In this document: in pieces, positions 9,720-43,247 of the stretch
Numbering within the stretch: position 1 is the first letter of the stretch
Layout: each line of letters begins with the position of its first letter
Virus record (IMG/VR): IMGVR_UViG_3300021255_004486
Reading direction: 5' to 3' (one strand)
From: an uncultured virus (IMG/VR IMGVR_UViG_3300021255_004486)
Taxonomy: Duplodnaviria; Heunggongvirae; Uroviricota; Caudoviricetes
Length of the DNA stretch: 43,247 bases
The notes under the pieces: model-generated
Databases searched by the model: none
What the model was told of the DNA's origin: nothing
The model's input: the letters and a program-made list of their open reading frames with translations, nothing else
Translations under genes and position numbers: made by a program

Positions 9720-9770
9720 TGAGAATCGCATATCTTACACACTTTATATATAAGCAGAAAGGAAATACTA

Positions 9771-10007: not shown

Positions 10008-10279
10008 AGGTACTTATAGCACTCGCTGTTGTGGTTATAGCCATAGCAGTCACCAAATCAATCATCAATATCGTTGCTGAGACCGACTTTTCAATCGAGG
10101 AAGAATAGATGGAACATGTTGTAGACATCCACGGTAAATATGCACTTGGAGATACTGGTATGTATGAAATACTCTGCGATATCCAGGCAGAAGATGGGAC
10201 TGTCACTCAGAATGCCATACGGATAGTCTCTGAGAATGATATAGCAAAGTGGATCAAGAAAAGAAGAGAAGTATAGCAA

Positions 10280-10702
10280 ATGGGAATTACCTTGCATGCA
10301 AACAATTCCACATATTCCTTTGATATGGGCGCAGGCTCATTTTTTCATTTAAGGGCCAATATCGCCAAAGTTTGGGATAAGCAGTTTGGCGAGCACTACG
10401 AGAAGCTACTAAACTGTCACAGCAAAGAGGAATACGATGATCACGACCGGATATCGGATGAGATCCTGTCACATCCACGCTTTAGTGAAGACGATGTGGA
10501 TATCGTAGACTTTCTCTACGCATCCGATATTGACGGCAAGATCGGATATAAGACATGCGGAAAGATATATAACCTCATAAAAGACGTAGATTTCGGCAAG
10601 AAATGTATCCGATACGCAGCATATTCACACAATGATTGGGAAGAGTTCAAGGAATTCCTTAAAGAGTGCTATTCCCACAGGAGAACCGCAAGATGGGAAT
10701 AA
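10280..10702 (+). CDS. phage-like hypothetical protein
   Basis: 140-aa ORF, FLYASDIDGKI pattern. Confidence 0.65.
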   Translation: MGITLHANNSTYSFDMGAGSFFHLRANIAKVWDKQFGEHYEKLLNCHSKEEYDDHDRISDEILSHPRFSEDDVDIVDFLYASDIDGKIGYKTCGKIYNLIKDVDFGKKCIRYAAYSHNDWEEFKEFLKECYSHRRTARWE

Positions 10703-12042
10703 TAAGGAATAAACTGATCAAAAAGAAGGATATTTCGCTAAAAGACACACTTATTGTTATCTTAATATTATCTGTCATCACTACCGGAGCCTTATTCTAT
10801 ACTACTTTTAAGACATTTACAGCTTTCGATTCATTGTCAACCGCCACAGATAAGTTTATAAAGCTGCAAGAGACCGCAAATCTGCTGTTGCAGGCATCTG
10901 ACTATCTGACAGAGGAATCACAATGCTACTCGGTAAGCGGAGACAGAAGGCATTTGGATAACTATATCGCCGAGTCAGAGGTATATAAGAACAGAGAAAA
11001 GGCCATAGAGACGATGGAAGAGGTCTTACCCGACTCTGATGCCTTACGTGACTTAAATAAGGCAATGGAAAAGTCCATAAAATTGATGGATAAAGAGTAT
11101 CACTCTATGAGACTGGTTCTTTCCGCATATTCCGATCCCAATATTCCAAAGGCTGTCGAGCAGATCACACTCACTCCCGAAGAAAACCGCATGTCTACAA
11201 TAGATAAGCTGACATTAGCCCGGGATTTAGTCCATAACGATGATTATTATGACCAAAAGAATCTCATCTATGCAGACCTTGAAGAGTGCGTTACAAGCCT
11301 AAAAGATGAAAATTACGTTGTACAGAAAAAATATGAGAGTAAGCTAAGAGAAGTTCTCGTATGGACGTGCGCGCTCATAATCCTCGAATCACTGCTCTTG
11401 ATCACCCTGTTCGTATTTACTATCAAACTTGGCATTAAACCGCTCTTATCAGCCGTAAACAACATCAAAAAAGATGAAAAGATACCGATAGAGGGTGCGC
11501 GAGAGTTTAAGTACCTGGCAAAGACATACAATCAGATGTATGAGGCTGCAAAGGACAATATCCAAAAGCTCTCATTTAAGGCATCTCACGATGAACTTAC
11601 AGGACTTTATAACCGTTCCGGCTTTGATTTTATCATTACGCAGATGCATCCCGAGAATATCGCATTCATCCTCGTAGATACCGATAATTTCAAGGAAGTA
11701 AATGACACATACGGACATGACATGGGAGACAAAGTGCTTAAGAAGATAGCAACTGTCCTCCTTAATAACTTCCGCCCCGAGGATCACATATTCAGAATAG
11801 GCGGTGATGAGTTCGTAGTCCTTATGTCGAACCCGAATAACGCCAAAAACATCATAAGAAGCAAGGTTGAACAGATAAATGCAGCCTTATCAGACGATTC
11901 TGACGGCATTACAAAGACATCTATAAGTGTAGGCATCGCATTCTACAGTAAGGACGATACTTACGAGGAACTGTATCAGAAAGCAGATGAGGCATTATAC
12001 CGGGTAAAAGGTAACGGACGACACGGTTGTGAATTCTATTGA
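10693..12042 (+). CDS. membrane-bound diguanylate cyclase (2 TM, extracellular sensor, GGDEF)
   Basis: DELTGLYNR, DNFKEVNDTYGHDMGD, RIGGDEF, ADEALY. Confidence 0.93.
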   Translation: MGIIRNKLIKKKDISLKDTLIVILILSVITTGALFYTTFKTFTAFDSLSTATDKFIKLQETANLLLQASDYLTEESQCYSVSGDRRHLDNYIAESEVYKNREKAIETMEEVLPDSDALRDLNKAMEKSIKLMDKEYHSMRLVLSAYSDPNIPKAVEQITLTPEENRMSTIDKLTLARDLVHNDDYYDQKNLIYADLEECVTSLKDENYVVQKKYESKLREVLVWTCALIILESLLLITLFVFTIKLGIKPLLSAVNNIKKDEKIPIEGAREFKYLAKTYNQMYEAAKDNIQKLSFKASHDELTGLYNRSGFDFIITQMHPENIAFILVDTDNFKEVNDTYGHDMGDKVLKKIATVLLNNFRPEDHIFRIGGDEFVVLMSNPNNAKNIIRSKVEQINAALSDDSDGITKTSISVGIAFYSKDDTYEELYQKADEALYRVKGNGRHGCEFY

Positions 12043-12108
12043 GGTCTTTTAGATTATGATACAATAGGCATAAGATGCCAAAATACCATCGTTGGCCGAG
12101 TTGGAGAT

Positions 12109-12543
12109 ATGTCTAAACAAAATAAAGAAAAAACAAAAGAGATGCCATTAGAGATATATCGCTGTTTGTATGAATATAAGACAGCAGATATGTTTCGGTC
12201 GGAAATGTCGCACATGTATAAGCGAATGGAGGCTCGTGAGTTCATTGAGACCATCCTTCGTTACGACATGGTACGAAACCTTTGGGCTCAGAACAAATTC
12301 TATTGCGCACTCTTTACTTTGGCATATCTTGATTATGTCTCGGAAGATATTGGACTGGGGCTATTCCCTGTATACGAAAAATACAGGAGTCAAAAGCTCG
12401 ACCATCTTGCCATACCAGGCGATATCATGCTTAAAAGCAAACTTGGCTTGGAAAACGCAATAGAAGACGCAGTTAACGAATGCAAGAACGATCCGTTGGG
12501 CAGATATTTTTATAGATTCAATATCCTATACAAAGAGGAATGA
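12109..12543 (+). CDS. putative partner/antitoxin of downstream nucleotidyltransferase
   Basis: Directly upstream of DUF6036-like gene; LAYLDY...YRSQKL...FNI pattern. Confidence 0.5.
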   Translation: MSKQNKEKTKEMPLEIYRCLYEYKTADMFRSEMSHMYKRMEAREFIETILRYDMVRNLWAQNKFYCALFTLAYLDYVSEDIGLGLFPVYEKYRSQKLDHLAIPGDIMLKSKLGLENAIEDAVNECKNDPLGRYFYRFNILYKEE

Positions 12544-12546
12544 GAT

Positions 12547-13155
12547 ATGGCTGACGCATTCACAAGAAAAGACATAGATCACATGTTATTCCTGGTCGCA
12601 AAAGAATATAAAAAGATGAACAGGCACAATCCAGAAGCGGAGCTGATTCTGGTTGGCGGTTCTTCAGTCATATTAAACTACAATTTTAGAGATGTGACCA
12701 CCGATATTGACACTGTATTTGAGACAACAAGTACCATAAAGGAAATCGTCAGCAGACTTGCTCGTGAAAACGGGTTATCCGATAGATGGCTAAACGATGA
12801 TTTTCGGAAAACCGACTCATTTAGCCAAAAGCTTGCAGAACACAGTAAATTCTACAAGCGATTCTATGATTGCCTCTCAGTGAGAACGGTAGCCGACGAA
12901 TATCTTATCGCTATGAAACTGTGCTCCTCCAGGGATTATAAGCACGACCAATCAGATATTGTGGGCATAATCAAAGAGAGTTACGAGCGGGGATATGAAC
13001 TTTCCACAGAAAAGATAGAAAGGGCATATCAAGACCTCTATGATGCGCCTATTTCCGATAAAACAAGAGCCTTTTTGGATAAAGTGTTCTCGTCGGACAA
13101 CCTGGAAGAACTGTTCTATTCCATATTTGAGGAGAAGAATCCATTTTCCCAATAA
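12547..13155 (+). CDS. DUF6036/AbiEii-like nucleotidyltransferase
   Basis: LILVGGS...TTDID; WLNDD; YLIAMKL..R.YKHD.SDI. Confidence 0.75.
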   Translation: MADAFTRKDIDHMLFLVAKEYKKMNRHNPEAELILVGGSSVILNYNFRDVTTDIDTVFETTSTIKEIVSRLARENGLSDRWLNDDFRKTDSFSQKLAEHSKFYKRFYDCLSVRTVADEYLIAMKLCSSRDYKHDQSDIVGIIKESYERGYELSTEKIERAYQDLYDAPISDKTRAFLDKVFSSDNLEELFYSIFEEKNPFSQ

Positions 13156-18243: not shown

Positions 18244-18534
18244 ATGAGCAACAACTCTCTTATACAGGAATTACATAATTCTCTTAACTCGGGTAACACT
18301 ACTCCACACAACTACAGGTTTAACAATAAAACAGGCGTTGTGGAGGATATGTGCGACACGTTAACCATAAAATCCAAGGATATCACAGATTATTTTACCG
18401 CCGAGGCAACGCTTTACTGGGCGGCGGCAAGATCTTCAACGACTAAAGCCGGCAGGCGCGAATACGAAAACAAGGCAAGATACAGCGAGATAGCAGCGGA
18501 AGCAATAAGGAGGTTCACAGATAATCGTGAATAA
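18244..18534 (+). CDS. hypothetical protein
   Basis: GAGGT RBS; overlaps serpin start. Confidence 0.65.
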   Translation: MSNNSLIQELHNSLNSGNTTPHNYRFNNKTGVVEDMCDTLTIKSKDITDYFTAEATLYWAAARSSTTKAGRREYENKARYSEIAAEAIRRFTDNRE

Positions 18535-19717
18535 GAAGATAGCAGAAAAGATAGAAGAATTCATCGTTAAGCATGTAATCGCACTAAGTATTGGTGTTCT
18601 ATCCGCAACAATCTTAGTCACTACACTTTACGGAATCTCTCTATATCTCCAGAACAAGGAAATAATGGAGGAAGAAGCTGCGAAAACAGAAATATATGAT
18701 GCACAGACTACACCGATCGGCAAAAACGTAAACACATACATCCACGCACTGCTTGATTCAACCGATGACAACATTGTCTTTTCCCCGGAGAGTATGAATG
18801 CAGCCTTGGATATCTACTCGGAGCTCCTTGTTGATGAAGATAAATCCCTGTACACGGAATTTATAAGTAACAGAGATTACACACGATATAACAGCGCAAG
18901 CGGACTTGAACTCGTAAATCGCGTTTGGATCAACAAGAACGCGGACATCCATATCGGCAAGGATATAGACATCTATAAAAAGGGATATATCAAGATGCTT
19001 GATATGAAGAACTCAAGTAAAGCCACCAAGATAAAGGACGACTACGTATCCGAACATACACACGGATTTATCACATCCACACCAACCGTATTTAATAACG
19101 AAACCATATTTGACGTTATGAGCGTCGCTTACTTTAAGGATATATGGAAAGCCTCTGGTGGATTTAATGAAAAAACCATCAATTTTAAGAATGAAGATGG
19201 CTCCATAGTAGAAACTGATGGATTCTATACAACGCGAGCCTGGTATATAGAGACAGACCAGGGTGTGTCTACGGAGATCCCATATCAAAACGGCTTCACA
19301 TTTGGCGTGATACTCCCATACGACGATGTAGAACTTAAAGATGTAGACATCACAGCCTTTATCGATAAGGAAAACACGATCGAAAGAGAAGCGTATGTAG
19401 AGATACCCGAGTTCGAAGTTGAGAATACGCACAAATCCCTGCTGAATTCATTAGGTCTTAAACCGGGCAAGATCCGTGAAGACATTACCAAAGAGGGCGG
19501 AAGCACAAATGTATCACAGGTTGCAAAAATCGTCGTAGACAGAACCGGCACCGAAGCCGCAGCGGTAAGCGAGGCACATTTCACGGTTGGATGTGTATAT
19601 ATCCCCGAAGATAAGGATGAGCCGGTCAGAATTATCTGCGACAGGCCATTTGCTTTCTATATATATGACACAGTCAACAATGACGTAGCATTCATTGGAG
19701 CAATAAGGAACTTTTAG
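18527..19717 (+). CDS. membrane-anchored serpin (serine protease inhibitor)
   Basis: NIVFSP, YFKDIW, IPEFEVE, hinge GTEAAAVS, DRPFAFYI...FIGAIRN; N-terminal TM. Confidence 0.9.
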   Translation: MNKKIAEKIEEFIVKHVIALSIGVLSATILVTTLYGISLYLQNKEIMEEEAAKTEIYDAQTTPIGKNVNTYIHALLDSTDDNIVFSPESMNAALDIYSELLVDEDKSLYTEFISNRDYTRYNSASGLELVNRVWINKNADIHIGKDIDIYKKGYIKMLDMKNSSKATKIKDDYVSEHTHGFITSTPTVFNNETIFDVMSVAYFKDIWKASGGFNEKTINFKNEDGSIVETDGFYTTRAWYIETDQGVSTEIPYQNGFTFGVILPYDDVELKDVDITAFIDKENTIEREAYVEIPEFEVENTHKSLLNSLGLKPGKIREDITKEGGSTNVSQVAKIVVDRTGTEAAAVSEAHFTVGCVYIPEDKDEPVRIICDRPFAFYIYDTVNNDVAFIGAIRNF

Positions 19718-22951: not shown

Positions 22952-23173
22952 ATGTCATACGTAGAATGCACAAATGTTGATTACATCATCCATTCCTTTA
23001 CACACAGCGATATCGACTTAGAAGAAGCCATCAGCAGATGTGAGAACTCAGACGAAGTTATTGAACTGGCTCAGAAACTCGGTATGCATGAAATTATCTC
23101 GGCAAAAGAGTGGGAGGATACCATAGAACGCATGACCGAGAGTGGTAAGCTCGACAGGTTCATAGAAGCGTAA
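22952..23173 (+). CDS. hypothetical protein
   Basis: GGGGTG RBS before ATG 22952. Confidence 0.55.
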   Translation: MSYVECTNVDYIIHSFTHSDIDLEEAISRCENSDEVIELAQKLGMHEIISAKEWEDTIERMTESGKLDRFIEA

Positions 23174-23174
23174 A

Positions 23175-23940
23175 CAGTGCCTACAGGGCATTAAATAATT
23201 CGACCAAAGAAGGTGAAGAGTCGTTAAAAGCAACCCTTGCATCTTTATGGCGGCCGATTCCCGAGACCGGAGAACATGCCGGGAGCCACCGAATAAGACC
23301 TCACCATGTTCGCATGGGAGATACTGTCGGCGTGGGCTGAGTCGAGTGCGCACGAAGCCGCCATAAGATACGGCGAATGAGGCACGTTGTTTGCTTGCAA
23401 ATGGCGAAAAATCTGTTGATTGCTTCGCAATCGGCAAGTGCTTCTCGCCTAATTCTTTCACAAACTTTGCCGGCCGGGAAATTTACGCGCAAGCGGTTTA
23501 TATCGGTCGGAGATGCGGTGGCGGAACGAGGTAGACGCTTAACAGGGAGAACAAGGCGACGTAGTAATAGCGTGACTATTACCATAGAAATGCGTGAAGC
23601 GAACAGCCTGTAATGCTTGTTCATGTGAGGTTCAAGTCCTCACCCGCATCATTGGGCGAAATGGGCGCGACAGACTCATAAGACCTTCGGGCAGAGCCAT
23701 TATAATCAGAGACACCAACAAATGCGAAGCGTTTGGTGCGGTAGCCCAAATAACAAGACTCCACCTTTGAGGCAATATACCTGCGGTTGGTCGGTGAACG
23801 TTGGAAAGTTTGTGTGTCGCCCGAGGGCGCAACGGCAAATGCATTGGCGAAATCCGATGGGGATAAAGGCTAATAACTTCCCAAAACCTCATAAAATACG
23901 GCGCGTGCAGAGCTTGGCTGCACAGTGAATATAGCAAAGT
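23175..23940 (+). ncRNA. putative large structured ncRNA (~770 nt)
   Basis: No credible ORF; GC-richer than flanks; many nested stems with TTCG/GNRA loops (see findings). Confidence 0.65.
23512..23651 (+). ncRNA. tRNA-like domain with expanded anticodon region
   Basis: Acceptor GATGCGG/CCGCATC-A; Leu-type D arm TGGCGGAACGAGGTAGACGC; T arm GTGAGG-TTCAAGT-CCTCAC; ~85-nt central insert. Confidence 0.65.
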
Positions 23941-23952
23941 AGGAGGAACACC

Positions 23953-25597: not shown

Positions 25598-27610
25598 TTG
25601 AACAAGAAGAGAAAATCACTAAAAACGATACTGTTAACCGAAGTTTCCATCTTTGTTGCGATTATCATTGCTGTGATAACGATCATAAACGTACAGATGC
25701 AGTCTAAAGATATCATAGACTTATCTTCATCTGTTATCTCAAAGGAATCCGTGTCCTATGCGAGCGAAGTTTATAACTGGTGGAGCGCAATAGAGAGTAG
25801 GGTGTCTCAGACGGCAAACATTATTAAGAGTCAGCCTAATCAGTCAAACGAAGATTTACAGGCTATGCTTATGAGCATCACCGAACTTGATCCCGATTCC
25901 CAGGATGTCTATGTGGCAATTAAGGAAGGTAATGTATTCCTCGATGGTACAGGATGGATTCCCGGTGATGATTTTGATTTTACGACAAGAGGTTGGTATA
26001 CAGGAGCAATAGATAAAAAGGGCGCTCTTTATACCGCAGAACCTTATGTAGATGCCATTACCGGAAAGACGTGCTTCTCATGTGCGGTAATGTTAAGCGA
26101 TGGCGTGGTACTTAGCTCTGACATCGTGTTTGATAAGGTTGCAGAGAAACTGAATGAATTCAAATCCTCTGCTGACGGAGCTGTATTTTATATCGTGAAT
26201 AAGAACACCAAGGATATTCTTGTAAGCAGTAACGCCGATGTCGTAGGCATGACTGTTACCGAAGCAGAAGATGTCATTGTAAAGGGCCTCGGGGCAGTTG
26301 TTGACAGCTTAAATACCGAAAACTCTATCGAAGTCGATAAGGTCAAGATAGCAGAAACATCTGCCGGCAAGTATATGTACGCAGCAACAGACATCACAGA
26401 CACATCCTGGATGGTCGTAAGCGCAGTTCCTTATACATTCGTAAGCAATTCAATAAAGAATACCGTTACCGTAACGGTTGTGGCATCCATAATCCTGTTG
26501 CTTCTTCTTGCAGTAGTGCTGTATCTGATCATAGCAAGGCACTTAAATCCTGTATCTGAAATGACAGACAAGATTACTGATGTATCAGAAGGCGACTTTA
26601 CGGTATCAATAGAGCCTAAAGGTAATGACGAGATTACTACTCTCGGCGAGCGGTTAGGCGACTACATTGTCGGCATGAGAGGAACGCTGTCTGAGATGGC
26701 AGAGATTTCCGGGAATATGGCAAGCAGCTCAGAAGAGTGTAAGAGTATTTCGGAGACACTGGCTTCCTCCAATCAGAATCAGAACGAGTCTATCGAAGGC
26801 CTTAACAATACTTTGGCAGCTATGAGCGACTCTATTGAGTCTATCGCCCAGGATGCAACAAACCTTGCCACCACGTCTACATCCCTTGCAGAAAACGCCG
26901 AGAATATAAAGAACCTTTGCGATGAAACCATCGAATCATCTGCATCCGGTAAGGAAAACATGCAGAACATGACCAAGAACGTAGACATTCTCAATGAGAC
27001 CATCAAGTCCCTTGCTGATGTCATTGGGGCTACCGCAAAGTCGATCGAAGAGATCACCGGCATTACAGATACTATAAACGCAATATCGGATCAGACAAAC
27101 CTTCTGTCACTCAATGCTTCTATCGAGGCGGCAAGAGCAGGAGAGCAGGGTAAAGGCTTTGCCGTCGTAGCGTCAGAGGTTGGAAACCTCGCAAAGCAGT
27201 CTTCTGAGGCAACAGAGACCATTCGTCAGCTCATATCGGGTATCACAGAGAATATAGAAGATATCCATACGAAATCTGACAAGTGCCTAAAGGACATGGA
27301 AACCTGCATGGTGGGCGTATCGGGAGCTAACGAGTCATTCAACATGATCTATGAAGACCTTATTAAGGCCACAGATGGCATCACGAGCATAGCAAGTGGA
27401 ATAGAGTCCATAAACGATATTGCTACAAATAACGCTGCCACAACAGAAGAGCAGGCTTCCACGATCCAGGAGATCCTTTCCTTAAGCGATGTGATACTTA
27501 CCGAAAGCAACAAACTCTCCGAGCAGACCAGTAAGATTGCAAGCGTATCCGAAAGTCTCAACAAGTATTCAGATGAGATCAAAGATAACTTAGGGAAATA
27601 CAGAGTATAG
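25598..27610 (+). CDS. methyl-accepting chemotaxis protein (dCache, HAMP, MCP signal)
   Basis: 2 TM; RGWY...EPYVDA dCache motif; [30 protein letters not shown]. Confidence 0.96.
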
Positions 27611-27617
27611 CGAGGTA

Positions 27618-28046
27618 GTGCCTATGAAGGAGATAGAATTCCTTGAGATGATAGTTTCCGGGCAGAGTTTTGGCGTGGAGATTGATGCTGTAAGAGAACT
27701 CTCAGATGCATTAACCACAACGCCTGTTCCCAACTCTCATCCCAGTGTAGAAGGTGTTTATGAACGCAGAGGCGAGACCATAGCGGTCATTAACTTACGA
27801 AATTGCCTTGGATTTAGCGCCGATTACCCCGAAAAAGGCGAGCATATCGTCATTCAGAATAATGACTCCATAGTTGCTCTTCATGTTGACAGCGTAGAGA
27901 GCATACATAGAGTCCTTGAGAATAAGGTACTCCCCGCAGGAAAGGTAAGCAACAGCGAGATAACCAAGGGGATCGTCAAGATACAGGACAGACTCATCAC
28001 TATTCTCGATGTACAGAAGATAATAGACGAAATTACAGCCAGTTAA
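27618..28046 (+). CDS. cheW: chemotaxis coupling protein CheW
   Basis: [35 protein letters not shown]. Confidence 0.88.
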
Positions 28047-28081
28047 CAGCACAACACACACATAAAAGAAAGGTCAAAACT

Positions 28082-29755
28082 ATGAAAAAGAAACTCACAC
28101 TCAAATCAATGCTACTGTTGTTCGCTATGGTTCCGCTGATATGTACAACAATCGCGCTTACTATCATGGGATCAAGGATGACCGTAACCAACCTTGAGAA
28201 GAATACCAAGGACGAGCTTAAGCTTGCGACTGCGTCCCTCCGGGAATACTACGAGTACGACATTATCAACGGGATCGACCTCGTGGATGGCTTCTGTGAA
28301 TACGATACCGAGTACATCGACAAGATGGGCTCCGTAACCGGAATAGACTTTACTTTGTTTAAGGATAACGTAAGGTTCATGACTACCATTAAGGATGACT
28401 CCGGTAAGCGTATAGAGGGTACAACCGCATCCGACGCAGTATGGGCCGCAGTATCCAAAGGTGAGGACTACTACTCTGACGACGTGGTTATAAACGGCAT
28501 AGATTACTATGTATACTATATGCCTCTCACAGACGGTAAGAACGTATATGGCATGGCCTTCTCCGGCAAACCTGCAACACAGATTAAAGCTGCAGAAAGA
28601 ACATCTGTTATAGGCACAGTAGGCGTATCTGTATTTTTTACGATTGTATTCGTATTCGTGGCTCTGTTCTTTGTTAAGAAGGTGGCAACGCCTATCAAGG
28701 CAGTGGCAGAGAACATCAGAGAGCTGTCAGAAGGTAACGTGAATGTAGATGTAAACGCCCACTCAACCGTGGAAGAGACGATCACGCTTATCGAGTCTAC
28801 GAAGACTTTGAGGGACAAGCTTTCAGAGATAGTAGGGGAAATACAGGTGTCTATGGGTTCCTTGTCAGAGATCATCGATACCACTACGAGCCTATCATCC
28901 GAGGCATCTGATTCAACAACTCAGATATCTGATGCAATGAATGACCTGGCAAATTCGACAGACATGATGGCCACATCCGTGCAGGATATCAATACGAATG
29001 TGATCGAGATGGGTAACATCGTTGAAAACGCCCAGTCAACAACGAGTACCCTCGCAGATTCCTCAAAGGCAATGGAAAATGCAAATAAGGATGCCTTAAA
29101 CTGCATTAACGACATCTCGGTTTCATCAAATAAGTCTGCCGAAGCAGTAAACAGCATAGCTGAGAGCATTCACAATACGAATGAAGCCGTAAACAAGATA
29201 ACCGACATGGTAAACCTTATATCATCTATTGCAAGCCAGACAAACCTCCTTGCACTTAACGCATCTATAGAAGCTGCAAGAGCAGGTGAAGCCGGCAAGG
29301 GCTTTGCGGTGGTAGCAGATAACATCAAGACGCTCGCAGCACAGTCCAATGACTCCGCAGAAGAGATCAAGGTAGTGGTAAGCGAGATAAGCAAGCTCTC
29401 AAATGAGTGTGTTGACCAGGCCGATTCGGTAAAACAAATGCTCATAGAGGAGCAGGAACTCTTAAACAAGGCAAGGGATCAGTTTGGAACCCTTGATAAT
29501 GAGATAAATTCTTCTGTACAGAACATTTCCACAGTAGAAGACATCACGAACCAGTTGGGAATGATCAAGGACACCATAATCAATGCAGTTTCAGACCTTT
29601 CAGCCGTTTCGGAGGAAACCTCTGCGACAAATGAGGAGGTAACCGCATCTGCGACCGTGGTTGCGAATAACGTAAGTAACGTATCGGCATCCATGGGGGA
29701 TGTAAGCAACCTGTCGGATCAGCTTAAGGAAGCTGTTGGATTCTTCAAGATATAA
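28082..29755 (+). CDS. methyl-accepting chemotaxis protein (single Cache)
   Basis: 2 [29 protein letters not shown]. Confidence 0.96.
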
Positions 29756-33551: not shown

Positions 33552-33914
33552 ATGGCAAAGGTACTTATAGTAGACGATGCAGCATTCATGAGAATGATGC
33601 TTAAGGACATTCTTGTTAAGAATGGATATGAAGTCGCCGGCGAAGCTGAAAATGGGCAGATGGCGATCGATAAATACGCAGAACTTAAGCCCGACATAGT
33701 AACTATGGACATCACGATGCCGGACGTAGATGGTATACAGGCCTTAAAGCAGATAAAATCATCAGATCCGTCTGCAAAAGTCATCATGTGTTCAGCAATG
33801 GGACAGCAGGCGATGGTGCTTGAAGCTATCCAGGGCGGAGCAAGAGATTTTATAGTAAAGCCTTTCCAACCCGAGAGAGTTCTTGAGGCTATTGGCAAGG
33901 CAGCAGAAGCATAG
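33552..33914 (+). CDS. cheY: chemotaxis response regulator CheY
   Basis: VLIVDDAAFMRMMLKDIL, DITMP, CSAMGQQAMV, FIVKPF: Firmicutes CheY. Confidence 0.95.
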   Translation: MAKVLIVDDAAFMRMMLKDILVKNGYEVAGEAENGQMAIDKYAELKPDIVTMDITMPDVDGIQALKQIKSSDPSAKVIMCSAMGQQAMVLEAIQGGARDFIVKPFQPERVLEAIGKAAEA

Positions 33915-35204: not shown

Positions 35205-36539
35205 ATGAAAAAGAGAATTTTGGGAATTATACTTTCATTCTTTGTTGTGTCGAGCCTTACACTTTCTGTATGCGCAAAAGAGGCGGATACAGACAAAAGT
35301 GATAAAAAGGCAACAGAAGAGTCAGCAGAAGAATCAAAAGAAGAGGAGACTGATGCAGAAGGCGAAGCTGAATCTGAGACAGAAGAGGTTGATCCTGCCG
35401 ATGTCGAAGACATGACACTTGAAGAATTACAGGAGTTCATGTCTCAGTCCTTGGAGGAAGAGGAAGTTCCGGCTGAAGAAGATGATGTCATATCGAAAAT
35501 AGAGCTTGAGCCTAAAGTAGAAGAGCCCGAGCCCGCATCAACAGTAGATATGACCAGATGGATACCCGATGTTGACAGAACCTTGACTATGCAGCTCGAT
35601 ATTCCATCAAGTACCACAAGGTTTGAGATATTCTACACCGCAACAATGGAAGAGCCGGTAGTAACATTTAAGTCTACCACAGACAATCTTACCGTATATA
35701 AAGCCGGTGAAGACGTGTACAGAGATGATGGATTCATTTTTATGACGCGCAGTGGACTTAAAGTAGAAGGCTATGACAATCTCCGCTATATGGCGGTTTA
35801 TATATCAAACACTCCCGATCCCGGTAAATGGACAATGTCAATCTATGCACCCGATGCTATAACTGAACTGTTTATGGTATCAACAGATATCTACGCAGGA
35901 TGGCAGTCGCTCGTACAGGACTACAAGATGCCTCCGCTTGGGCTTATCTTCTGGTATGTAGACGATAAATCCGTGTACAGAGACACTCCTGTAGATATGA
36001 TAAATACCGTCATTATTGACGAGCCCATTCCCGAGGTAAATCACGTAAGTGATATTACTCCCGAAGAACCGGATCAGACACCGAAGTTAATGATGATGTG
36101 CATAGTTCTCACGGTAATACTGCTTGCATTCATAGGTTTTATCGCATATCACACGCAGAAAGCAAAGCAGGAGCGCGAAAAAGAGCGCAGGCAGGCAATC
36201 GTTAATCGTGAGAATGACAAGCTGCAAAGGAAGAAAGCACAGATCAACGCTGAACTCGACAGAGTATTGGATGATTTCGGTGATGATTATATAGATGACG
36301 ATGAGTTTGGCAGCTATCTTGAAGATGAAAGCACATCAAATTCGGCAAACAAGGTCATTACCGCAGAATCATTAGGCATAGATATTGAGCCCGACGAAAC
36401 TTCTGTACACGAAAAAACAGAAGAAGATAAACCCAAGGAAGAACCGGTAGACAACACAAAACCGCTGTTTATGCGGCAAAACACAACTCCTTCTTGGGCA
36501 GTAGAAAGCGGAAATTCATCCGGCAACGGATTCTTCTAA
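35205..36539 (+). CDS. exported single-pass membrane protein with acidic cytoplasmic tail
   Basis: Signal peptide, acidic linker, beta-rich domain, TM, coiled coil and acidic tail. Confidence 0.8.
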   Translation: MKKRILGIILSFFVVSSLTLSVCAKEADTDKSDKKATEESAEESKEEETDAEGEAESETEEVDPADVEDMTLEELQEFMSQSLEEEEVPAEEDDVISKIELEPKVEEPEPASTVDMTRWIPDVDRTLTMQLDIPSSTTRFEIFYTATMEEPVVTFKSTTDNLTVYKAGEDVYRDDGFIFMTRSGLKVEGYDNLRYMAVYISNTPDPGKWTMSIYAPDAITELFMVSTDIYAGWQSLVQDYKMPPLGLIFWYVDDKSVYRDTPVDMINTVIIDEPIPEVNHVSDITPEEPDQTPKLMMMCIVLTVILLAFIGFIAYHTQKAKQEREKERRQAIVNRENDKLQRKKAQINAELDRVLDDFGDDYIDDDEFGSYLEDESTSNSANKVITAESLGIDIEPDETSVHEKTEEDKPKEEPVDNTKPLFMRQNTTPSWAVESGNSSGNGFF

Positions 36540-36608
36540 AGATTATGTTCTCCCAAAACTACCATACTTAATTTGTATGGTGGTGATGGGAGAAGCACAG
36601 GTATCAAT

Positions 36609-37001
36609 GTGGCAGAGAAAGATTTACAAAACGAAGTACAAAAGAAACGTCCTTTTAAGTTAGTCCAGAGATGTCAGATATTATCTACACAGATTGTATC
36701 GGCAACGGCTAACGCTCCGAAAGAGTATCGTTTGAGTATATGTAAGGAAGTTCAGAACTTATCCTATGAGCTTATCCACACAATACGACTTGCGAACAGT
36801 TTCCCTTTTGGAGAGGACAGACAATCTACTCAGAAGACGGCGCAGGAGAACATCGAAAGAATAAACGATCTGATTCCGGTAGCAAAAAGATGCAGATGTA
36901 TCACACCGGAGCAGGAAGAAGAGATTATTAAGACGATCAATTTAATCCGTTCAAATTTTATTAACTGGGTAGAGTCAAGCGACGAGGACGATAGCATATA
37001 A
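36609..37001 (+). CDS. four-helix bundle protein, Avd (DGR accessory)-like
   Basis: APKEYRLSI...IRLANS...RQSTQ..A...I...I...Q......I....INW pattern; likely GTG start at 36609. Confidence 0.65.
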   Translation: MAEKDLQNEVQKKRPFKLVQRCQILSTQIVSATANAPKEYRLSICKEVQNLSYELIHTIRLANSFPFGEDRQSTQKTAQENIERINDLIPVAKRCRCITPEQEEEIIKTINLIRSNFINWVESSDEDDSI

Positions 37002-37175
37002 CCACCACCAAAGAATAATTCAACAATTAAATATGGTTTACGGACTATATTTTTGATTGAATTCATCTTAATCGGGTATATCCCAATCAAATCGTGTGTA
37101 CATGCACACATCAAATCCAACTATATTGTGGCACGAAGCCAAAGCATTATTTTCCAATATAGGAGGAGAAACCCC

Positions 37176-38942
37176 ATGAAAAACAAGGTATTTAGACGTA
37201 TCACCCAGGTAGCGGGAGCACTTTGCATATCCGGCAGTCTCATTATGAGCTCTGTCAGCATTGCATGTGCAGCCGAGACCGACAAAGAAGCGGTAGAAGC
37301 CGAGGCCAAAGAGACCAAGGAAGCAGACAAGTCTGAGTCAGAAAAAGACATTGACGAGATGATGGATGAGTTTGCAGAGTTTGAAACCGCAACAGATGAG
37401 GCAACAGATGAAGTAACAGCCACACCCGCAGTAAGCGACGCGGATCTGTTTGAGAACTATGAATCATCCTCAAGCATGTCAGTAGTAAAAGATACTACGC
37501 CCGCAGCGCAAGATGCAACCGAGTTTAACTTCGGTGGTTCAGCAAACCCGACAGTCGGAAGTATGGATATTGCTCCGTTAGAGGGAATGGATGAGGCTGA
37601 ATACACACAGACGCAGGCACAGACCACAGCTCCGGCAGTTGAGACTAAGTCAAGCCTTCCTTTTGATTCCACATATCTTATGTATGGACTCATCGGACTG
37701 GTTGGAACATTAGCCTTGATCGGTGCAGTGACAGCAGCCGTAATCATAGGTAAAAAGAAGGCATCCGCAAAGAATACACCGGCGGTCGCAAAGCCTGTAC
37801 AGAGACAGTCAGCCTTTAATGCAGATTTGGACGACGATTTTGATGAATTTAGCGAGGATACAACTATGAACTATGAAGACACAAACGAGGCAACAGTAAA
37901 TGACGTTGACTTCGACGAAACCGACGAATACATGGACGACTACGACGAGGACGATTTCTACGAGGAAGAAAACGGCGGGTTCTTACAGAACATCAAGAAC
38001 GCTACCCAGGGAAAACTTCCTTATATAGTTGCAGGACTTGGAGTAGTGGCCGCTTGTGTTATTGTTCTTGTAACACTTGGCAAGAAGTCCGCAGCAGCAG
38101 ATACAGAGTCTACCTCAATGGAGATGGCATCTGTGGGTGAAGAAGGCGATGCAGATGATGATTACACCCGTGGTACTGTTTATGCAAACTCCAAAGAGTA
38201 TCTTGCAGAGACACTTGGAGAAGACGGCGAAGTAGTCGATCCGGTAAACCTTACCGATGCACAGCTCTCTGACCTTGTAAAGAAAGTTCAGAGCGAACTC
38301 TTAAAGAGTGATGCAACGCTTTCCGCATCTGATGTTCAGCTCATCTCCGAAGGCGTAGTAGAGAAGATCCTTTCAGAGCAGGGCGGAGCAACAGGAGGTA
38401 TGTCAAGTGCCGAAATGCAGCAGTTACTTAACCGCGTAAAGACGCTTGAAAGTGAAAATAAGGACACTATCACCGCCCTTAAGGCTGTATCAGCAACCAA
38501 GGGAGAGAAAGGTGATAAAGGCGATAAAGGTGATACCGGTGCCCGCGGTGCGCAGGGCGAGCGCGGTGCGCAGGGTGAGCGCGGAGCCACAGGTGCCCAG
38601 GGAGCCCAGGGAATCCAGGGAATCCAGGGTGTGAAAGGCGAAAAAGGTGACACAGGTGCCACAGGTGCCCGCGGTTTACAGGGTGAGCAGGGTATCCAGG
38701 GTATCCAGGGTGAGAAAGGCGCAGCCGGACAGGACGGTAAGACCAGTTTCCTTATGTACTCGGCAAACGCAGACGGCTCTGGTATGACACAGACTATCGA
38801 GTCTACATCTAAGTACATCGGTACATACTTTGGCGACTCAACAACCGCACCTACCGATCCTTCAGCCTATACTTGGACAGAAATGAGAGATTACGTGATT
38901 TCTTACGATTCGAGCTCAAATACCGTAGTCATTGCAAACTAA
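37176..38942 (+). CDS. membrane-anchored collagen-like surface protein
   Basis: Signal peptide, two TM, Gly-X-Y run, C-terminal [10 protein letters not shown]...YIGTY...TDPSAYTW phage-antireceptor-like domain; AGGAGG RBS before ATG 37176. Confidence 0.85.
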
Positions 38943-38969
38943 CCGCAATCAGATGAAAGAGGTATTGTT

Positions 38970-40841
38970 ATGAAATTACCAGAGATAGACGAATCAAACG
39001 AGCAGATCGGCTTTGATTTCGAAGAAGAACCAATCGATATGGATGATGTCCCCGGGACTAAAACAAGTCTCGGGAAGGCACTTCCTTTCCTTATCGGTGG
39101 CACAGCAGTAGCAATAATCGCTACAGTTGGCCTTATCGCAGCCGCGGTAAACAGTAAAAATAAAGCCACTGAAACGGTCACACCGTCTGATGCGATGCAC
39201 GCTGAGTCAGTAACCGCAGAAGAGGAAGAGTATCTGATGGGTACTACTTATCAGAACGCCCGCGGATACATAGAAAGGAATCTCACAGATGAAAACGGAA
39301 ATGTGGATTTCTCAACCCTCTCAGACGAGCAGTTGGATACTCTCACAAAAGAGATTCGAAGTGAGCTTATAAAGAACAACGATATGCTCACTCCATCCGA
39401 TGTTCAGACTATATCAAGCGCAGTATTTGACCAGTTGATCAAGGATTACAGCTCCAAGGGGATGTCTGATGAAGACACAAAGAGCTTAATGGATAGGATC
39501 GAGGCACTTGAGACTGATAACGCAGACATCACCACAGCCTTGAAAGCTGTAAGGACTGTTAAGGGCGAAAAAGGCGACAAGGGCGACAAGGGTGACCGTG
39601 GCGAGCCCGGTGTTAAAGGCGACAAGGGTGACCGAGGCGATACGGGTGCACGAGGCGACAAAGGTGACCAGGGTATACAGGGTATAGCAGGCCAGGATGG
39701 TAGAGACGGCGTAGGTATTGTTGGAATATCAAAGACCGGCACCGCAGGGCTTGTAGATACATACACAATAACCCGTACCGACGGCAACACATCAATCTTT
39801 GAAGTAGTAAACGGAGAAGTTGGTGCAGATGGTGCAGGCATTGAGAATATCCAGAAAACCGCTACAAACGGACTTCTCGATGAATATACCATAACCTATG
39901 CCGGCGGGAAAAAGACCACCTTTAACGTGACAAACGGCTTAGATGGTATAGATGTAACCGGAATAACCTTTAAGGAATCCGATGCGACCGGGCTTCACGA
40001 TACATACACAGTTAATTACTCAAATGGCGCATCCGACACGATAACTGTTACAAACGGAAAGCAGATCGCGGACATTCAGAAGACCAATACATCATCGAAC
40101 GGCCTTATTGATACCTGGACTATCACTTATAATGATTCATCCACGGATGAACTTGTTATTTCAAACGGTGTTGGCATCAAGGGAATAAATAAGACCGGCA
40201 CATCAGATCTTACCGATACATACACGATCACGTATGCAGATGATACAACAGACGTGTTCACGGTTAAGAATGGTGAAAAAGGTGAAAAAGGTGATACCGG
40301 TAATGGCATCGCATCAATAGAAAGAACAAACAGAAATGCTCTTACCGACACATATACTATCACCTACACAGACGGCAATACAAGCACTTATGACGTTGTA
40401 AACGGTGCAACCGGTACTGGTATCCGTAACATTGCCAAAACAAGCACAGAAGGTGTTACAGACACCTACACGATCACAATGACGGACGATTCAACAATTC
40501 CGTTTACCGTTACAAACGGCGTATCCGTGACCGGAACAGAAAAGACTGGAACGGCAGGGCTTGTAGATACATACACGATGTCATACTCAAACGGAACCAC
40601 ATCAAACTTCACTGTCACCAATGGTGAAAAGGGTGATACCGGTTCGGGTTCATTCATCAGATATGCAGATGATGCAAGCGGTAGCAATATGCAGTCTGCT
40701 CCGACATCAACATCAGCATACTTTGGCGTGTACATCGGTGATTCTGCATCAGATAATCCGAGTGATTACACTTGGATGAAATTTAGAGATTACACCGCTG
40801 AGTTTAGCGGAGATACAGTGACATTCACTATAGTCAATTAA
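38970..40841 (+). CDS. membrane-anchored collagen-like protein with 8 DTYTITY repeats
   Basis: N-terminal TM, Gly-X-Y run, eight ~36-aa GI..I.KT...GL.DTYTITY.DG....F.VTNG repeats, C-terminal RYADDASG...DNPSDYTW domain. Confidence 0.85.
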   Translation: MKLPEIDESNEQIGFDFEEEPIDMDDVPGTKTSLGKALPFLIGGTAVAIIATVGLIAAAVNSKNKATETVTPSDAMHAESVTAEEEEYLMGTTYQNARGYIERNLTDENGNVDFSTLSDEQLDTLTKEIRSELIKNNDMLTPSDVQTISSAVFDQLIKDYSSKGMSDEDTKSLMDRIEALETDNADITTALKAVRTVKGEKGDKGDKGDRGEPGVKGDKGDRGDTGARGDKGDQGIQGIAGQDGRDGVGIVGISKTGTAGLVDTYTITRTDGNTSIFEVVNGEVGADGAGIENIQKTATNGLLDEYTITYAGGKKTTFNVTNGLDGIDVTGITFKESDATGLHDTYTVNYSNGASDTITVTNGKQIADIQKTNTSSNGLIDTWTITYNDSSTDELVISNGVGIKGINKTGTSDLTDTYTITYADDTTDVFTVKNGEKGEKGDTGNGIASIERTNRNALTDTYTITYTDGNTSTYDVVNGATGTGIRNIAKTSTEGVTDTYTITMTDDSTIPFTVTNGVSVTGTEKTGTAGLVDTYTMSYSNGTTSNFTVTNGEKGDTGSGSFIRYADDASGSNMQSAPTSTSAYFGVYIGDSASDNPSDYTWMKFRDYTAEFSGDTVTFTIVN

Positions 40842-40853
40842 GGAGGGCCAACA

Positions 40854-41117
40854 ATGAAAAGAAAGGTTTTGGCGTTAGCCGGTGTCATTACGGCGGGTGC
40901 AATAGCGATATCTCCGTTGGCAATATACGCAGCGGGTTCGAATGTAGGCACTATATCCGTAATGAACGAAGGAGTGGAGACAATCCACATCGTAGCATCT
41001 GATTTTGACAATATCGATTCATGGAAGACCGATATGGACGCTCATGAGAATATCATCGATCAGAAGATGGAAGAAATCAGAGCAAAAGCACAGATAATTG
41101 AGTCAGTAACACCTTAA
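40854..41117 (+). CDS. small secreted protein, similar to N-terminus of downstream gene
   Basis: Signal peptide; GVETIHIVASDF vs GVTKVRIDANDL; C-terminal coiled coil. Confidence 0.75.
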   Translation: MKRKVLALAGVITAGAIAISPLAIYAAGSNVGTISVMNEGVETIHIVASDFDNIDSWKTDMDAHENIIDQKMEEIRAKAQIIESVTP

Positions 41118-41132
41118 TCGGAGGGTAAACAG

Positions 41133-42116
41133 ATGAAAAAGAAACTTATCGCTTTAATATCAGCAGCAGCAATAGCAATCGCAGCCATTCCTGTCGGCGT
41201 ATCAGCCGTAGGCGCAAGAGAGGGCTCTATATCGTCATTTGGTGTATTTGAATACAAAGATGGCGGCGTAACAAAGGTTAGGATCGATGCTAACGACTTA
41301 AAGACAGTCGCAGGCGGTATCGACACTGTAGAAGCAAAGATGGATTCCATCTATGATCCCGATGGCGGCCCTGGAGGAACACCTTCCGGTGAGCTTGCAG
41401 AGATAGGACAAACTGTATCAGATCTGGCAGATGCAGTATCTCTTAGCTCATCCGAGGCAGCCGCTCCGGCAAACGTGCTGTCCGGCAAAAAGTACATCAC
41501 AAAGGGTACAGACGGCAAGTTAACGGTTGAAACCGGTACTATGACCAGTTACAAGAATACAACAAGCACTACAGGCGCAACAACTTCCGCAGATCCGACA
41601 GAGAGTGGCACTCCTGGCGATCCCGGTTTCACGTCCGCAGCTGTCGTAAATCTCCCCGCAGGATATTATGACGGTAACACTCCTATCGATGTATCATCCA
41701 TCGCTAATCACTATTATGACGACGGGGTAGCTGCCGGAAAGGCATCTGCGACATTTAATGCTTCTGCGACAAATATAGGAGATGTTTCAGACTGGTCAGG
41801 GCATGGAAAATACTACATTACAACCGTTACATCAAGTACGCCGATCAACATTTCGTACATCCCTGGATATAAGAATTTAACCAACGATAATTTCTATTAT
41901 GTAGTAAGCAGTTATAATCTGCCCGGTGGTGCATTATCAAATCACATAGATACCTCGCAAATAAGCTATGTTGCAGCTTCCGTTAGTTACGATAGTTCAA
42001 ATGGTGTTTTGACTGTTACCCCTGCGGCTCTGTATTTTTATACGAATTGGGATGGCGGTGAAATGTCTGCTCGTAGACAAACCACAATAAGCACATATGT
42101 CTATCTGATTAAATAG
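41133..42116 (+). CDS. secreted fibre/adhesin-like protein with shufflon-variable C-terminus
   Basis: Signal peptide; phage-fibre-like ANVLSGKKY...GTM and LPAGYYDG motifs; last 75 codons start at site TTTCTATTATGT (41891). Confidence 0.85.
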   Translation: MKKKLIALISAAAIAIAAIPVGVSAVGAREGSISSFGVFEYKDGGVTKVRIDANDLKTVAGGIDTVEAKMDSIYDPDGGPGGTPSGELAEIGQTVSDLADAVSLSSSEAAAPANVLSGKKYITKGTDGKLTVETGTMTSYKNTTSTTGATTSADPTESGTPGDPGFTSAAVVNLPAGYYDGNTPIDVSSIANHYYDDGVAAGKASATFNASATNIGDVSDWSGHGKYYITTVTSSTPINISYIPGYKNLTNDNFYYVVSSYNLPGGALSNHIDTSQISYVAASVSYDSSNGVLTVTPAALYFYTNWDGGEMSARRQTTISTYVYLIK

Positions 42117-42350
42117 ACAATAGTGGTGATATTGCTTGATGAGGATGTCCCTCGTTCAGCTCCATAGACATAAGCCCCACCATAAGAAGCTACTCTTGCG
42201 GGGGTTACGGTTAAAATCCCGGCATCCGCGTCATAGCTTATGGATGGATTGTAATAATATCCGTAAGCCCAACAGTTCGAACAACTTCCTGAAAACACCA
42301 GTAACAGGAACATTTGAGGTAGATGTTCCATTGGATAATGCATAATAGAA
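42101..42350 (-). pseudogene. shufflon cassette 2 (silent; 1-nt frameshift)
   Basis: FYYALSNGTSTSNVPVTGV / SGSCSNCW...SISYDADAGILTVTP...IVYLIR*; 250 nt, extra base probably in A4 run 42292-42295. Confidence 0.75.
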
Positions 42351-42363
42351 ACGTATTTCGGTT

Positions 42364-42573
42364 TTCTATTATGTGGAATCAACTGCCAGTCAGTCCCGAA
42401 CTTCAATGTCGTGGTATAGTTGCACATACTATCCACCGGACTTGTCGTACAACCCAACTACCGGAGTTCTTACAATTTCCCCAAGCCATGAGACACTTGG
42501 TATTACTAATGGCTCATACGGCGTTGGTGCAGACACACTTGTCCATTCTGTCAGTGTTTACTTAATCAAATAG
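42364..42573 (+). other. shufflon cassette 3 (silent C-terminal ORF)
   Basis: FYYVESTAS...LSYNPTTGVLTISP...SVYLIK*, 210 nt in frame. Confidence 0.85.
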
Positions 42574-42791
42574 ACTATCGTAGACAGAACGGCTGTCTGA
42601 GTCTTTGTTTGACCAGTGCCCAGATTTTTGTAATACGCAGTTAACGATCCGGGGCTGACCGTAAGAACGCCCGTGGATGCGTTATAAGATACGGAGGGCA
42701 TTGATACGGAAGCCCAATAACCAATACTACCAACAGGGGCGTATCCAGCACTGGAATTCGGGGTTGTGGCAGACGAGGCAACATAATAGAA
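42558..42791 (-). other. shufflon cassette 4 (silent C-terminal ORF)
   Basis: FYYVASSAT...VSYNASTGVLTVSP...IVYLIK*, 234 nt in frame. Confidence 0.85.
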
Positions 42792-42805
42792 ACCATATAA
42801 GAGAT

Positions 42806-43030
42806 TTCTATTATGTCGTATCGAGTTATTCGGGCGATTATAAGGAGTCCAATCAAAATGCACACCACCACCCATTTTCATACGCCCAACCATCTATTTC
42901 ATACAATGCAAGTACGGGAGTTTTAACAGTTAGCCCTGCGTGTATAACACTTACATTTGCGTATAGCGGTGAAAGTAGTGGTTGGAGTCAAAAGTTCTAC
43001 CCCTCAACTGCCGTTTACTTAATCAAGTAG
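42806..43030 (+). other. shufflon cassette 5 (silent C-terminal ORF)
   Basis: FYYVVSSYS...ISYNASTGVLTVSP...AVYLIK*, 225 nt in frame. Confidence 0.85.
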
Positions 43031-43242
43031 ACTGCTGTCGAGATAGTGTAAGTCTTTCCATTACCCCATCCGCCACCATTTACATAATACTGATCTAACC
43101 TCATGGTGGCAGGGGTTACGCTTAGAGTTCCAGTAGAAGCAGCATACGAAATACTTGGAACTGTAAATGTACCGGCAGGATAATTTGCAGTCTCATTTGC
43201 GTTATAAAGTGTCTGTGATGTGCTTGATAATACATAATAGAA
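43015..43242 (-). other. shufflon cassette 6 (silent C-terminal ORF, not in ORF track)
   Basis: Manual translation FYYVLSSTSQT...ISYAASTGTLSVTPATMRL...AVYLIK*, 228 nt in frame. Confidence 0.85.
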
Positions 43243-43247
43243 ATTAT

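Follow-up and report, generated by a model that had tools for sequence, protein, structure and literature searches.

Organization of the locus

The sequence analysed here is the whole 43,247-nt stretch of IMG/VR record IMGVR_UViG_3300021255_004486 (hereafter the window), from an uncultured virus placed in the Caudoviricetes. Its right-hand end carries the gene of a predicted exported protein of 327 residues (ORF 41133-42116, the target), whose 3′ end is the first of six related cassettes arranged in an array and delimited by short repeats (Table 1). The repeat is a 12-nt word, TTTCTATTATG(T/C), present in six exact copies in a scan of the window, numbered sites 1 to 6. A tolerance of one mismatch raises the number of matches to 7, where 0.97 would be expected and none of 100 shuffles reaches as many; the seventh, mismatched copy is found at 28060, within an unrelated gene. 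The six sites strictly alternate in orientation and delimit three segments, 41891-42351 (A), 42363-42792 (B) and 42805-43243 (461, 430 and 439 nt, respectively). Each site is read from its second base as FYY, in the same frame as the target ORF, which spans site 1. Alignment of the oriented sites shows a conserved stretch of 12 nt only, and no dyad symmetry is visible by eye in the sites and their flanks. The six alternating sites, the three segments and the 11- and 12-nt spacers described in an earlier note on this DNA, made from the letters alone, are all confirmed at their coordinates, the sites being exact and far above chance.

Each segment is made up of two convergent, start-less 3′ ends. 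Five of the six cassettes (c1, c3, c4, c5 and c6) are open from FYY to a stop codon placed after VYLIK. They share a scaffold with c2, invariant in alignment A5 at F1, S35, Y36, G41, L43, P47, G58 and V73-I76, and the pairwise identity between cassettes is 30-48%, with differences spread throughout. Cassette 2, when read from its own site, meets a stop after 39 residues, and its homologous tail, which ends in VYLIR, is found in a different frame. One contig of another sequencing run (X3, see below; depth 2.9) has A3 instead of A4 at this point, with one A missing at 42292, which restores the 82-aa cassette, and two metagenome relatives, P0013 and P0014, resemble this intact form; the frameshift may be an error, a polymorphism, slippage or the mark of a decaying cassette. 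The FYY cassettes of 69-82 aa proposed in the earlier note are thus found for five of the six, with the scaffold as described, while the upper length applies to cassette 2 only with the shorter A run. In every segment, the two convergent cassettes overlap in a quasi-palindrome of 18-21 nt, from either strand of which VYLI(K/R) and a stop are read. Its copies (repeat family D1) are spaced by 457 and 457 nt, and each segment looks like a diverged inverted duplication centred on it. No Shine-Dalgarno core precedes c2 to c5, the four silent cassettes with upstream sequence inside the window; the expressed gene has GGAGG 8 nt upstream of its ATG, in agreement with the proposal that cassette 1 alone is fused to an expressed gene and that the others lack a ribosome-binding site and a start.

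The constant part of the target begins with a Sec-type signal peptide, the layout of which is kept in the relatives P0006, P0007 and P0010, including P20, A25 and G27 (V-x-A before the cleavage point). The protein had been described as a secreted fibre: the signal peptide agrees with the first half of this description, but collagen-like sequence is found only in the neighbouring genes and not in the target itself.

Table 1. Coordinates of the target gene, its sites and cassettes and the genes upstream of them in the window, and of the shufflon on viral contig L101 (numbered on that contig)
Feature	Sequence	Coordinates	Strand	Remarks
Two collagen-repeat proteins	Window	37053-38942, 38970-40841	+	Pfam Collagen 3.6e-14 and 7.3e-9; upstream of target
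87-aa exported protein	Window	40854..41117	+	Directly upstream of target
Constant 5′ part, aa 1-252	Window	41133..41890	+	Signal peptide, N-terminal domain, low-complexity linker, first two tip strands
Sec-type signal peptide, aa 1-25	Window	41133-41207	+	Three lysines, hydrophobic stretch, V-S-A before predicted cleavage
Crossover site 1 (TTTCTATTATGT)	Window	41891..41902	+	Within expressed gene; X1 contigs branch and X2/X3 joints fall here
Cassette 1, 74 aa + stop	Window	41892..42116	+	Tip presently fused to constant part
Quasi-palindrome	Window	42099..42119	.	Centre of segment A; equivalents 42556-42576 and 43013-43033
Cassette 2	Window	42101..42350	-	Frameshifted at A4 run 42292-42295; intact 82 aa if run one base shorter
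Crossover site 2 (TTTCTATTATGC)	Window	42340..42351	-	Site scan
Spacer, 11 nt	Window	42352..42362	.	Separates back-to-back sites 2 and 3
Crossover site 3	Window	42363..42374	+	X3 joint 41890->42363; another X3 contig ends at 42374
Cassette 3, 69 aa + stop	Window	42364..42573	+	Open in frame
Cassette 4, 77 aa + stop	Window	42558..42791	-	Open in frame
Crossover site 4	Window	42781..42792	-	Site scan
Spacer, 12 nt	Window	42793..42804	.	Separates back-to-back sites 4 and 5; inverted between cassettes 6 and 1 in P0003
Crossover site 5	Window	42805..42816	+	X2 joint 41889->42804
Cassette 5, 74 aa + stop	Window	42806..43030	+	Open in frame
Cassette 6, 75 aa + stop	Window	43015..43242	-	Open in frame
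Crossover site 6	Window	43232..43243	-	X1 contig 8 ends exactly at 43243; window stops 4 nt later
Inverted alternative C-terminus	L101	10390-10959	-	Behind 352-aa ORF
Tyrosine recombinase	L101	10785-11816		Pfam Phage_integrase 9.2e-32 and SAM-like N-terminal domain
Further tip cassette	L101	12031-12297		
Second inverted C-terminus	L101	12331-12762		

The last 4 nt of the window (43244-43247, TTAT) are the reverse complement of 41887-41890, the 4 nt preceding site 1, and extend the match between the two ends of the array to a 20-nt terminal inverted repeat of 95%. The end of the window may therefore be a constant-to-cassette-6 junction read backwards, with the true right flank outside the window, 4 nt being too few to decide. 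The back-to-back site pattern was also searched for elsewhere: it has no match in IMG/VR, and the 19 loci matched in metagenome contigs, each with a single pair and no cassette array, were taken as chance hairpins; one of them (L014) has one extra copy 6 kb away.

Alternative junctions at the sites

Parts of the stretch are present in five public gut-metagenome runs, of which four (X1 to X4) had their Logan contigs mapped to 39500-43247; X1, with 98% of the sampled words, may be the source of the record, X3 is another run of the X1 sample, and X2 comes from another sample of the same study. The evidence is at the contig level throughout, and parts of the stretch that are uncovered in X2, X3 and X4 were not counted as evidence of absence.

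In X1, the assembly graph is interrupted exactly at the sites. Contig 6 (41706-41903, depth 13.7) is continued by a 47-nt contig 7 (41874-41920, depth 7.4), which carries the junction of the constant part to cassette 1, and then by contig 8 (depth 11.7), which extends precisely from the first base of site 1 (41891) to the last base of site 6 (43243). Successive contigs (4/5, 5/6, 6/7 and 7/8) overlap by exactly 30 nt, as expected from a graph of 31-mers, which a repeat of 12-13 nt cannot branch by itself. The depth of contig 7, 7.4 against 13.7 for contig 6, thus indicates that no more than about one in two molecules with the constant part has cassette 1 behind it. At its right end, contig 6 includes one base beyond site 1, an A that only cassettes 1 and 6 have in common. 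Most simply, the other half of the X1 molecules would carry the constant part joined to cassette 6, with the complete array inverted by recombination of site 1 with site 6.

Two further arrangements are observed in the other runs. In a 242-nt contig of X3 (depth 3.4), 41890 is followed by 42363, which places cassette 3 behind the constant part, and 12 nt are common at the joint. In a 616-nt contig of X2 (depth 3.1), 41889 is followed by 42804, which places cassette 5 there (13 nt common); this contig continues to 43247 and 6 nt further. The earlier note suggested a search for alternative junctions in reads; in contigs, breaks and joints are found at sites 1, 3, 5 and 6. A breadth-first search over block inversions shows that cassettes 2, 4 and 6 are brought behind the constant part by one inversion and cassettes 3 and 5 by two, exactly as the earlier note had reasoned; joints of the X2 and X3 type need two inversions in a system that works by inversion only.

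A junction of a different kind is found in P0003, a 104-aa public ORF on a 1,021-nt NCBI contig, in which cassette 1 follows 29 other residues. These residues are the plus-strand antisense reading of cassette 6, followed by site 6, the reverse complement of the 42793-42804 spacer and then a site. When 43167-43243 is joined in silico to the reversed and complemented spacer (42793-42804) and then to 41891-42116, the translation agrees with P0003 at 103 of 104 residues. The window has cassette 1 on the same strand as this spacer and upstream of it, and cassette 6 downstream, with its site facing away; P0003 has both cassettes inverted relative to the spacer. At least two inversions are needed for this arrangement, according to the breadth-first search over all block inversions. 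The junction cannot arise by deletion and is the strongest single evidence for inversion.

Given that the rearranged junctions sit exactly at the sites, we consider the locus to be an active multiple-inversion system, or shufflon, that swaps the C-terminal tip of an exported protein, with a probability of about 0.8. The locus has three features of this class: six sites in strictly alternating orientation, an expressed constant part with start-less cassettes, and, in contigs, coexisting arrangements with breakpoints at the sites. In the proposed mechanism, a recombinase encoded outside the window would recombine pairs of oppositely oriented 12-bp sites and invert a single segment or a block of segments, and the constant part (aa 1-252) would thereby be fused in frame, at the FYY codons, to any of the six cassettes of 69-82 aa.

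Several observations weigh against this reading, and some of them favour a static array of paralogous 3′ pseudo-cassettes, in which the junctions would be strain differences produced by rare deletion or illegitimate recombination at short repeats. No strand-switching joint is found among the joints listed for the region: those of X2 and X3 are both same-strand skips, and a deletion between direct sites would look alike. The X2 contig keeps the right-hand letters after site 6, which requires either an additional segment beyond 43247 or a deletion, and X2 has no cover of segments A and B, as after a deletion. Both contigs are shallow (depth 3.1-3.4), a constant-to-cassette-6 junction contig is not among the X1 rows listed, P0003 is known from one short contig, and cassette 2 is frameshifted in the present assembly. 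A static array nevertheless appears quite improbable, as every rearranged junction falls exactly within the 12-nt site, the P0003 junction requires two inversions, and two runs of one sample differ, with cassette 1 in X1 and cassette 3 in X3, the X1 graph being branched at sites 1 and 6. In addition, 12 nt is too short for homologous recombination, and known shufflons are likewise built of in-frame sites in strictly alternating orientation. A fixed locus with assembly chimeras formed at the short repeat has in its favour that the evidence comes from contigs and not from raw reads, and that three of the variant records are short and shallow; this is very improbable, since a repeat of 12-13 nt cannot join unrelated paths of a 31-mer graph without spanning reads, and independent data sets (X1, X2, X3 and the NCBI contig) place their breakpoints at the same sites. 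Diversification by a diversity-generating retroelement has a single element in its favour, the ORF at 36573-37001 that matches Avd (PHROG 6e-13; NCBIfam 2.2e-8, below the cut-off), and its probability is negligible: Pfam found no reverse transcriptase among the window ORFs scanned, the cassettes differ throughout and not at adenine-templated positions, and the rearrangements occur at the sites. This Avd-like ORF is the only retroelement-type feature found, the search for template and variable repeats having been confined to 41000-43247.

The class of the recombinase has to be considered separately from the inversion itself. No tyrosine or serine recombinase and no transposase was recognised by Pfam in the window ORFs searched (61 of the 72 ORFs of at least 100 aa and 26 smaller plus-strand ORFs, the 11 outside the scan being antisense ORFs within larger genes or cassette ORFs), which also counts against an active shufflon. 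If the locus is one, we infer a dedicated recombinase just beyond the end of the contig. It is rather likely to be of the tyrosine type, similar to Rci or Rin, an estimate based on the short asymmetric core as in sfx and rix, on the lack of dyad symmetry and on the precedent of a second shufflon, L101, described below. Both R64 (PMC11852207) and Rin, with its 11-bp rix site (PMC6109161), combine short asymmetric sites with a tyrosine recombinase. A serine invertase (Hin/Gin/Cin/Min type, Min of p15B being an example) could also drive a real switch, but this is rather unlikely. Min-type systems also swap tail-fibre C-termini by means of several crossover sites placed within the coding sequence (PMC6109161), and the absence of a visible recombinase in the window ORFs scanned leaves the class open. 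The crossover sites of the Hin family, however, are imperfect palindromes of 26 bp, unlike the present site with its conserved core of just 12 nt and no dyad symmetry seen by eye in site or flanks, and L101, the one related tip-domain shufflon found, uses a tyrosine recombinase.

The exchanged tip and its relatives

The target has no Pfam family at E ≤ 0.01, no match in PHROGs or NCBIfam and no match of its sequence profile in the PDB; its ESM Atlas scores, 0.79-0.80, are at the chance level. A model of the whole protein is of low quality (pLDDT 52, with the N-terminal part too poor for use) and gave a best Z of 4.6 in fold searches, which does not reach the meaningful level. The model of residues 200-327, made with a 17-row alignment, is better defined (mean pLDDT 76.7) and is composed of nine strands: two are contributed by the constant part, the third, FYYVV, is encoded at the site, and six further strands extend into the cassette. 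According to this model, the swap replaces seven of the nine strands of one β-sandwich of about 100 residues and not a separate whole domain. With the site inside a β-strand, the constant part would give two strands and the cassette the site strand and six others, so that the whole binding face could be exchanged with retention of the fold.

No Foldseek match at E ≤ 0.001 was obtained for the tip model. Its best match by VIA, the distal domain of the Pam1 cyanophage tailspike (Z 5.3, r.m.s. deviation of 3.0 on 66 residues), is below the meaningful level, and lectins and fibre tips are found at Z 4.0-4.5, within noise; no fold can be named from them. The lack of a significant structural match is a further point against the main reading, and leaves distant homology and the position of the gene as the grounds for calling the tip a binding one.

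Ten relatives were recovered with HMMER (cut-off E ≤ 0.001) from 1.84 billion representative proteins, all in clusters of one or two members and on contigs of 1,021-7,802 nt. Contigs this short are expected if loci of this kind break assemblies, and imply that short-read assembly systematically loses or truncates them. P0001 and P0002 are strain variants of the target (97% and 90% identity). P0004, P0005, P0008, P0009 and P0013-P0018 have only the C-terminal domain in common with it, with the motifs (L/I)T-x-DNF(Y/F)Y and S-Y-N-A-S-T-G-V-L-T-V and a terminal Y-L-I-K, while P0007 and P0010 have only the N-terminal domain in common and end in a Cys-rich region. P0009 (282 aa) carries two tip domains in tandem, with LTNDNFY before each, which indicates that the FYY motif is structural in the domain and not solely a recombination site. 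The ORFs of P0013 and P0014 start with ..IIKGQN(Y/S)FYY, as if read through from a neighbouring inverted site and spacer, and this suggests related shufflons with a slightly different site.

Whole-protein relatives are absent from IMG/VR (5 pattern hits, none confirmed), from phage and plasmid records and from the 90%-cluster protein set at near length. In the species genomes of GTDB, none of the 82 pattern hits of the tip alignment and none of the 40 of the N-terminal alignment was confirmed; the latter alignment gave 70 pattern hits in IMG/VR, again with none confirmed, and P0010 has no match in phage records. Neighbouring genes were used as baits as well: a 444-aa ORF gave no confirmed hit, and a collagen-repeat ORF gave 350, of which 80 were kept; none of the 99 loci examined encoded the target, the cassettes or the other baits.

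The IMG/VR scan with the tip alignment did confirm two loci, L100 and L101, both on viral contigs. In L101, the last 100 residues of a 352-aa ORF match the tip profile (hhalign 95.2%, E 2.6e-8), and this ORF is preceded by a 780-aa ORF and two more ORFs; in L100, a 138-aa protein with the tip domain (hhalign 96.2%, E 2.2e-9) is encoded two genes before an endolysin (Pfam Glucosaminidase 2.3e-28). By their position only, the long upstream ORFs could be tape-measure and baseplate genes. These profile matches make the tip a distant homologue of the C-terminal tips found in tail-module proteins of the two contigs, and for this reason a receptor- or ligand-binding role is the most likely one; the tip would presumably be a ligand-binding head. 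Taken with the Sec signal peptide, the same homology makes it most likely that the switch would change what an exported or surface-exposed binding protein recognises.

L101 carries a shufflon of its own in 9266-12764, with at least three further C-terminal cassettes, two of them inverted (Table 1). Inverted repeats of 97-141 nt, in which 19 nt form a perfect core, connect these elements. Judged from its sequence, L101 is a separate shufflon that acts on a related tip.

A second variable zone is observed in the target gene, at about 41580-41725. The sequences of P0002 and run X4 agree with the window up to about residue 150 and no further; for P0001 and the contigs of X2 and X3, the match starts only at about residue 193. 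Branching of the X1 contigs is also seen at 41690-41735. It seems that strains differ in the low-complexity linker that connects the N-terminal domain with the tip.

Known systems and the carrying element

The architecture is that of the R64-style shufflon to which the locus had been compared in the earlier note. As in the shufflons of R64 and IncI1-IncI2 plasmids (Rci, sfx, PilV; described in part in PMC11852207 and PMC9881135), a constant 5′ part is followed by invertible segments separated by short spacers, mostly with two convergent start-less cassettes each; the sites are short, asymmetric, in frame and alternating, and single segments or blocks invert. The present site appears to be unrelated in sequence to the sfx consensus. 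The target carries no PilV or prepilin domain (it matches no Pfam family, PF04917 included), no type IV pilus gene is found among the window ORFs, and the host appears to be of the Firmicutes type.

The idea that this could be the first Gram-positive shufflon does not hold. The Rin shufflon of Bifidobacterium prophages precedes it and is a closer analogue than R64: an XerD-like tyrosine recombinase acts on an 11-bp asymmetric site, rix, and varies the C-termini of receptor-binding proteins, with coexisting variants among reads (PMC6109161); the system is also described in Eggerthella prophages (PMC8778435). Common to Rin and the present array are a Gram-positive element (a probable one here), a short asymmetric site (11 against 12 bp) that opens each variable C-terminal cassette of the target, coexisting variants in sequencing data and strongly diverged cassettes; the target, a receptor-binding protein in Rin, may be of that type here as well. 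The rix site, TTCCCTAACCC (PMC6109161), differs from the present one, and the Rin cassettes, according to these papers, are mostly in tandem, flanked by the rin tyrosine recombinase gene and placed in a recognisable tail module, whereas the present array has convergent pairs with overlapping palindromic ends, a target with a signal peptide and no recognised virion gene in 43 kb.

Min of the plasmid-prophage p15B, with Gin and Cin, similarly puts alternative tail-fibre C-termini on one constant part by multiple inversions, but these are serine invertases with dyad-symmetric sites (PMC6109161), a symmetry not seen here. L101, finally, has a homologous tip domain among its variable C-termini and alternative ends that are inverted; it differs by its crossover region, the long inverted repeat upstream of the tip domain, by a recombinase gene inside the array and by a tail-module target without a signal peptide.

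The principle is known from R64, p15B Min and Rin, and the site, the target family and the export signal are new; no description of the present site or target family was found in the literature searched. A survey of gene-altering inversions lists phage tail, PilV, HsdS, SusC and other targets, with Firmicutes among the phyla (PMC9881135). The few shufflons characterised so far are joined by one with a new crossover site and a target family not annotated elsewhere, and this family is tied to phage receptor-binding tips. It offers a view of a programmed specificity switch in gut metagenomes, in the form of different tips on the same gene, both within one sample and between samples. If its recombinase can be recovered, one more compact enzyme for inversion at multiple sites, with a 12-bp core, would become available to synthetic biology, a field in search of such tools (PMC11852207).

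The target stands at the end of a series of co-directional genes. The 87-aa exported protein directly upstream is probably, as judged by eye, a paralogue of its N-terminal domain within the same module, and a similar arrangement is found on one 7,802-nt contig for the related pair P0006 and P0007. The two preceding genes encode collagen-repeat proteins of 620-630 aa with hydrophobic membrane spans (by eye), a coiled-coil-like stretch, Gly-X-Y repeats and a C-terminal domain; in the second, a motif similar to TDTYTITY-DG-x-F-V-NG is repeated about ten times. Only the collagen part of these proteins is covered by tail-fibre PHROG matches, and the proteins could possibly form a stalk or a partner of the target module. 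Just upstream of them is the gene of the Avd-like four-helix protein (36573-37001).

All but one of the 46 larger ORFs of the window are on the plus strand. A Shine-Dalgarno core stands before 28 of 46 starts on this strand, where random positions would give 6.2. The recognisable genes encode a DNA methyltransferase, GIY-YIG and HNH homing endonucleases, a dUTPase, a GGDEF protein, a serpin, a DUF4349 protein, two methyl-accepting chemotaxis proteins, CheW, a CheY-like receiver, a sigma-70 region 4 protein, a cold-shock protein and a VirD4-like coupling protein. The best plasmid matches of the last (25-28% identity) are all from Firmicutes, and it also matches unannotated gut phage records. 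None of the genes in the 43-kb window was recognised as one for a capsid, portal, terminase large subunit, tail, relaxase or VirB4 protein, and the element may be a large phage, a plasmid or an island. The use of Shine-Dalgarno sequences and the Firmicutes-type best matches of the VirD4-like gene point to a Gram-positive, Firmicutes-type host.

An unlikely alternative for the target itself is that it is not a virion protein but an exported adhesin of a Firmicutes mobile element, with a phage-derived tip placed beside membrane-anchored collagen-like stalks. If so, the shufflon would switch which cell or host surface the carrier of the element binds, and would be a Gram-positive functional counterpart of the recipient-specificity switching of PilV, with a VirD4-like coupling protein on the same element.

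Rfam and tRNA scans of the window gave nothing, and a scan for promoters and terminators in 36400-43247 remained at the background level. The element is rich in ORFans, among which the GGDEF, serpin and chemotaxis-type genes are found within 10666-12042, 18527-19717, 25598-29755 and 33552-33914. A stretch of about 0.8 kb (23170-23950), with no Rfam match at E ≤ 1 and a fold z-score of -1.0 that is not significant, is poor in ORFs and has a G+C content of 0.49, against about 0.42 around it.

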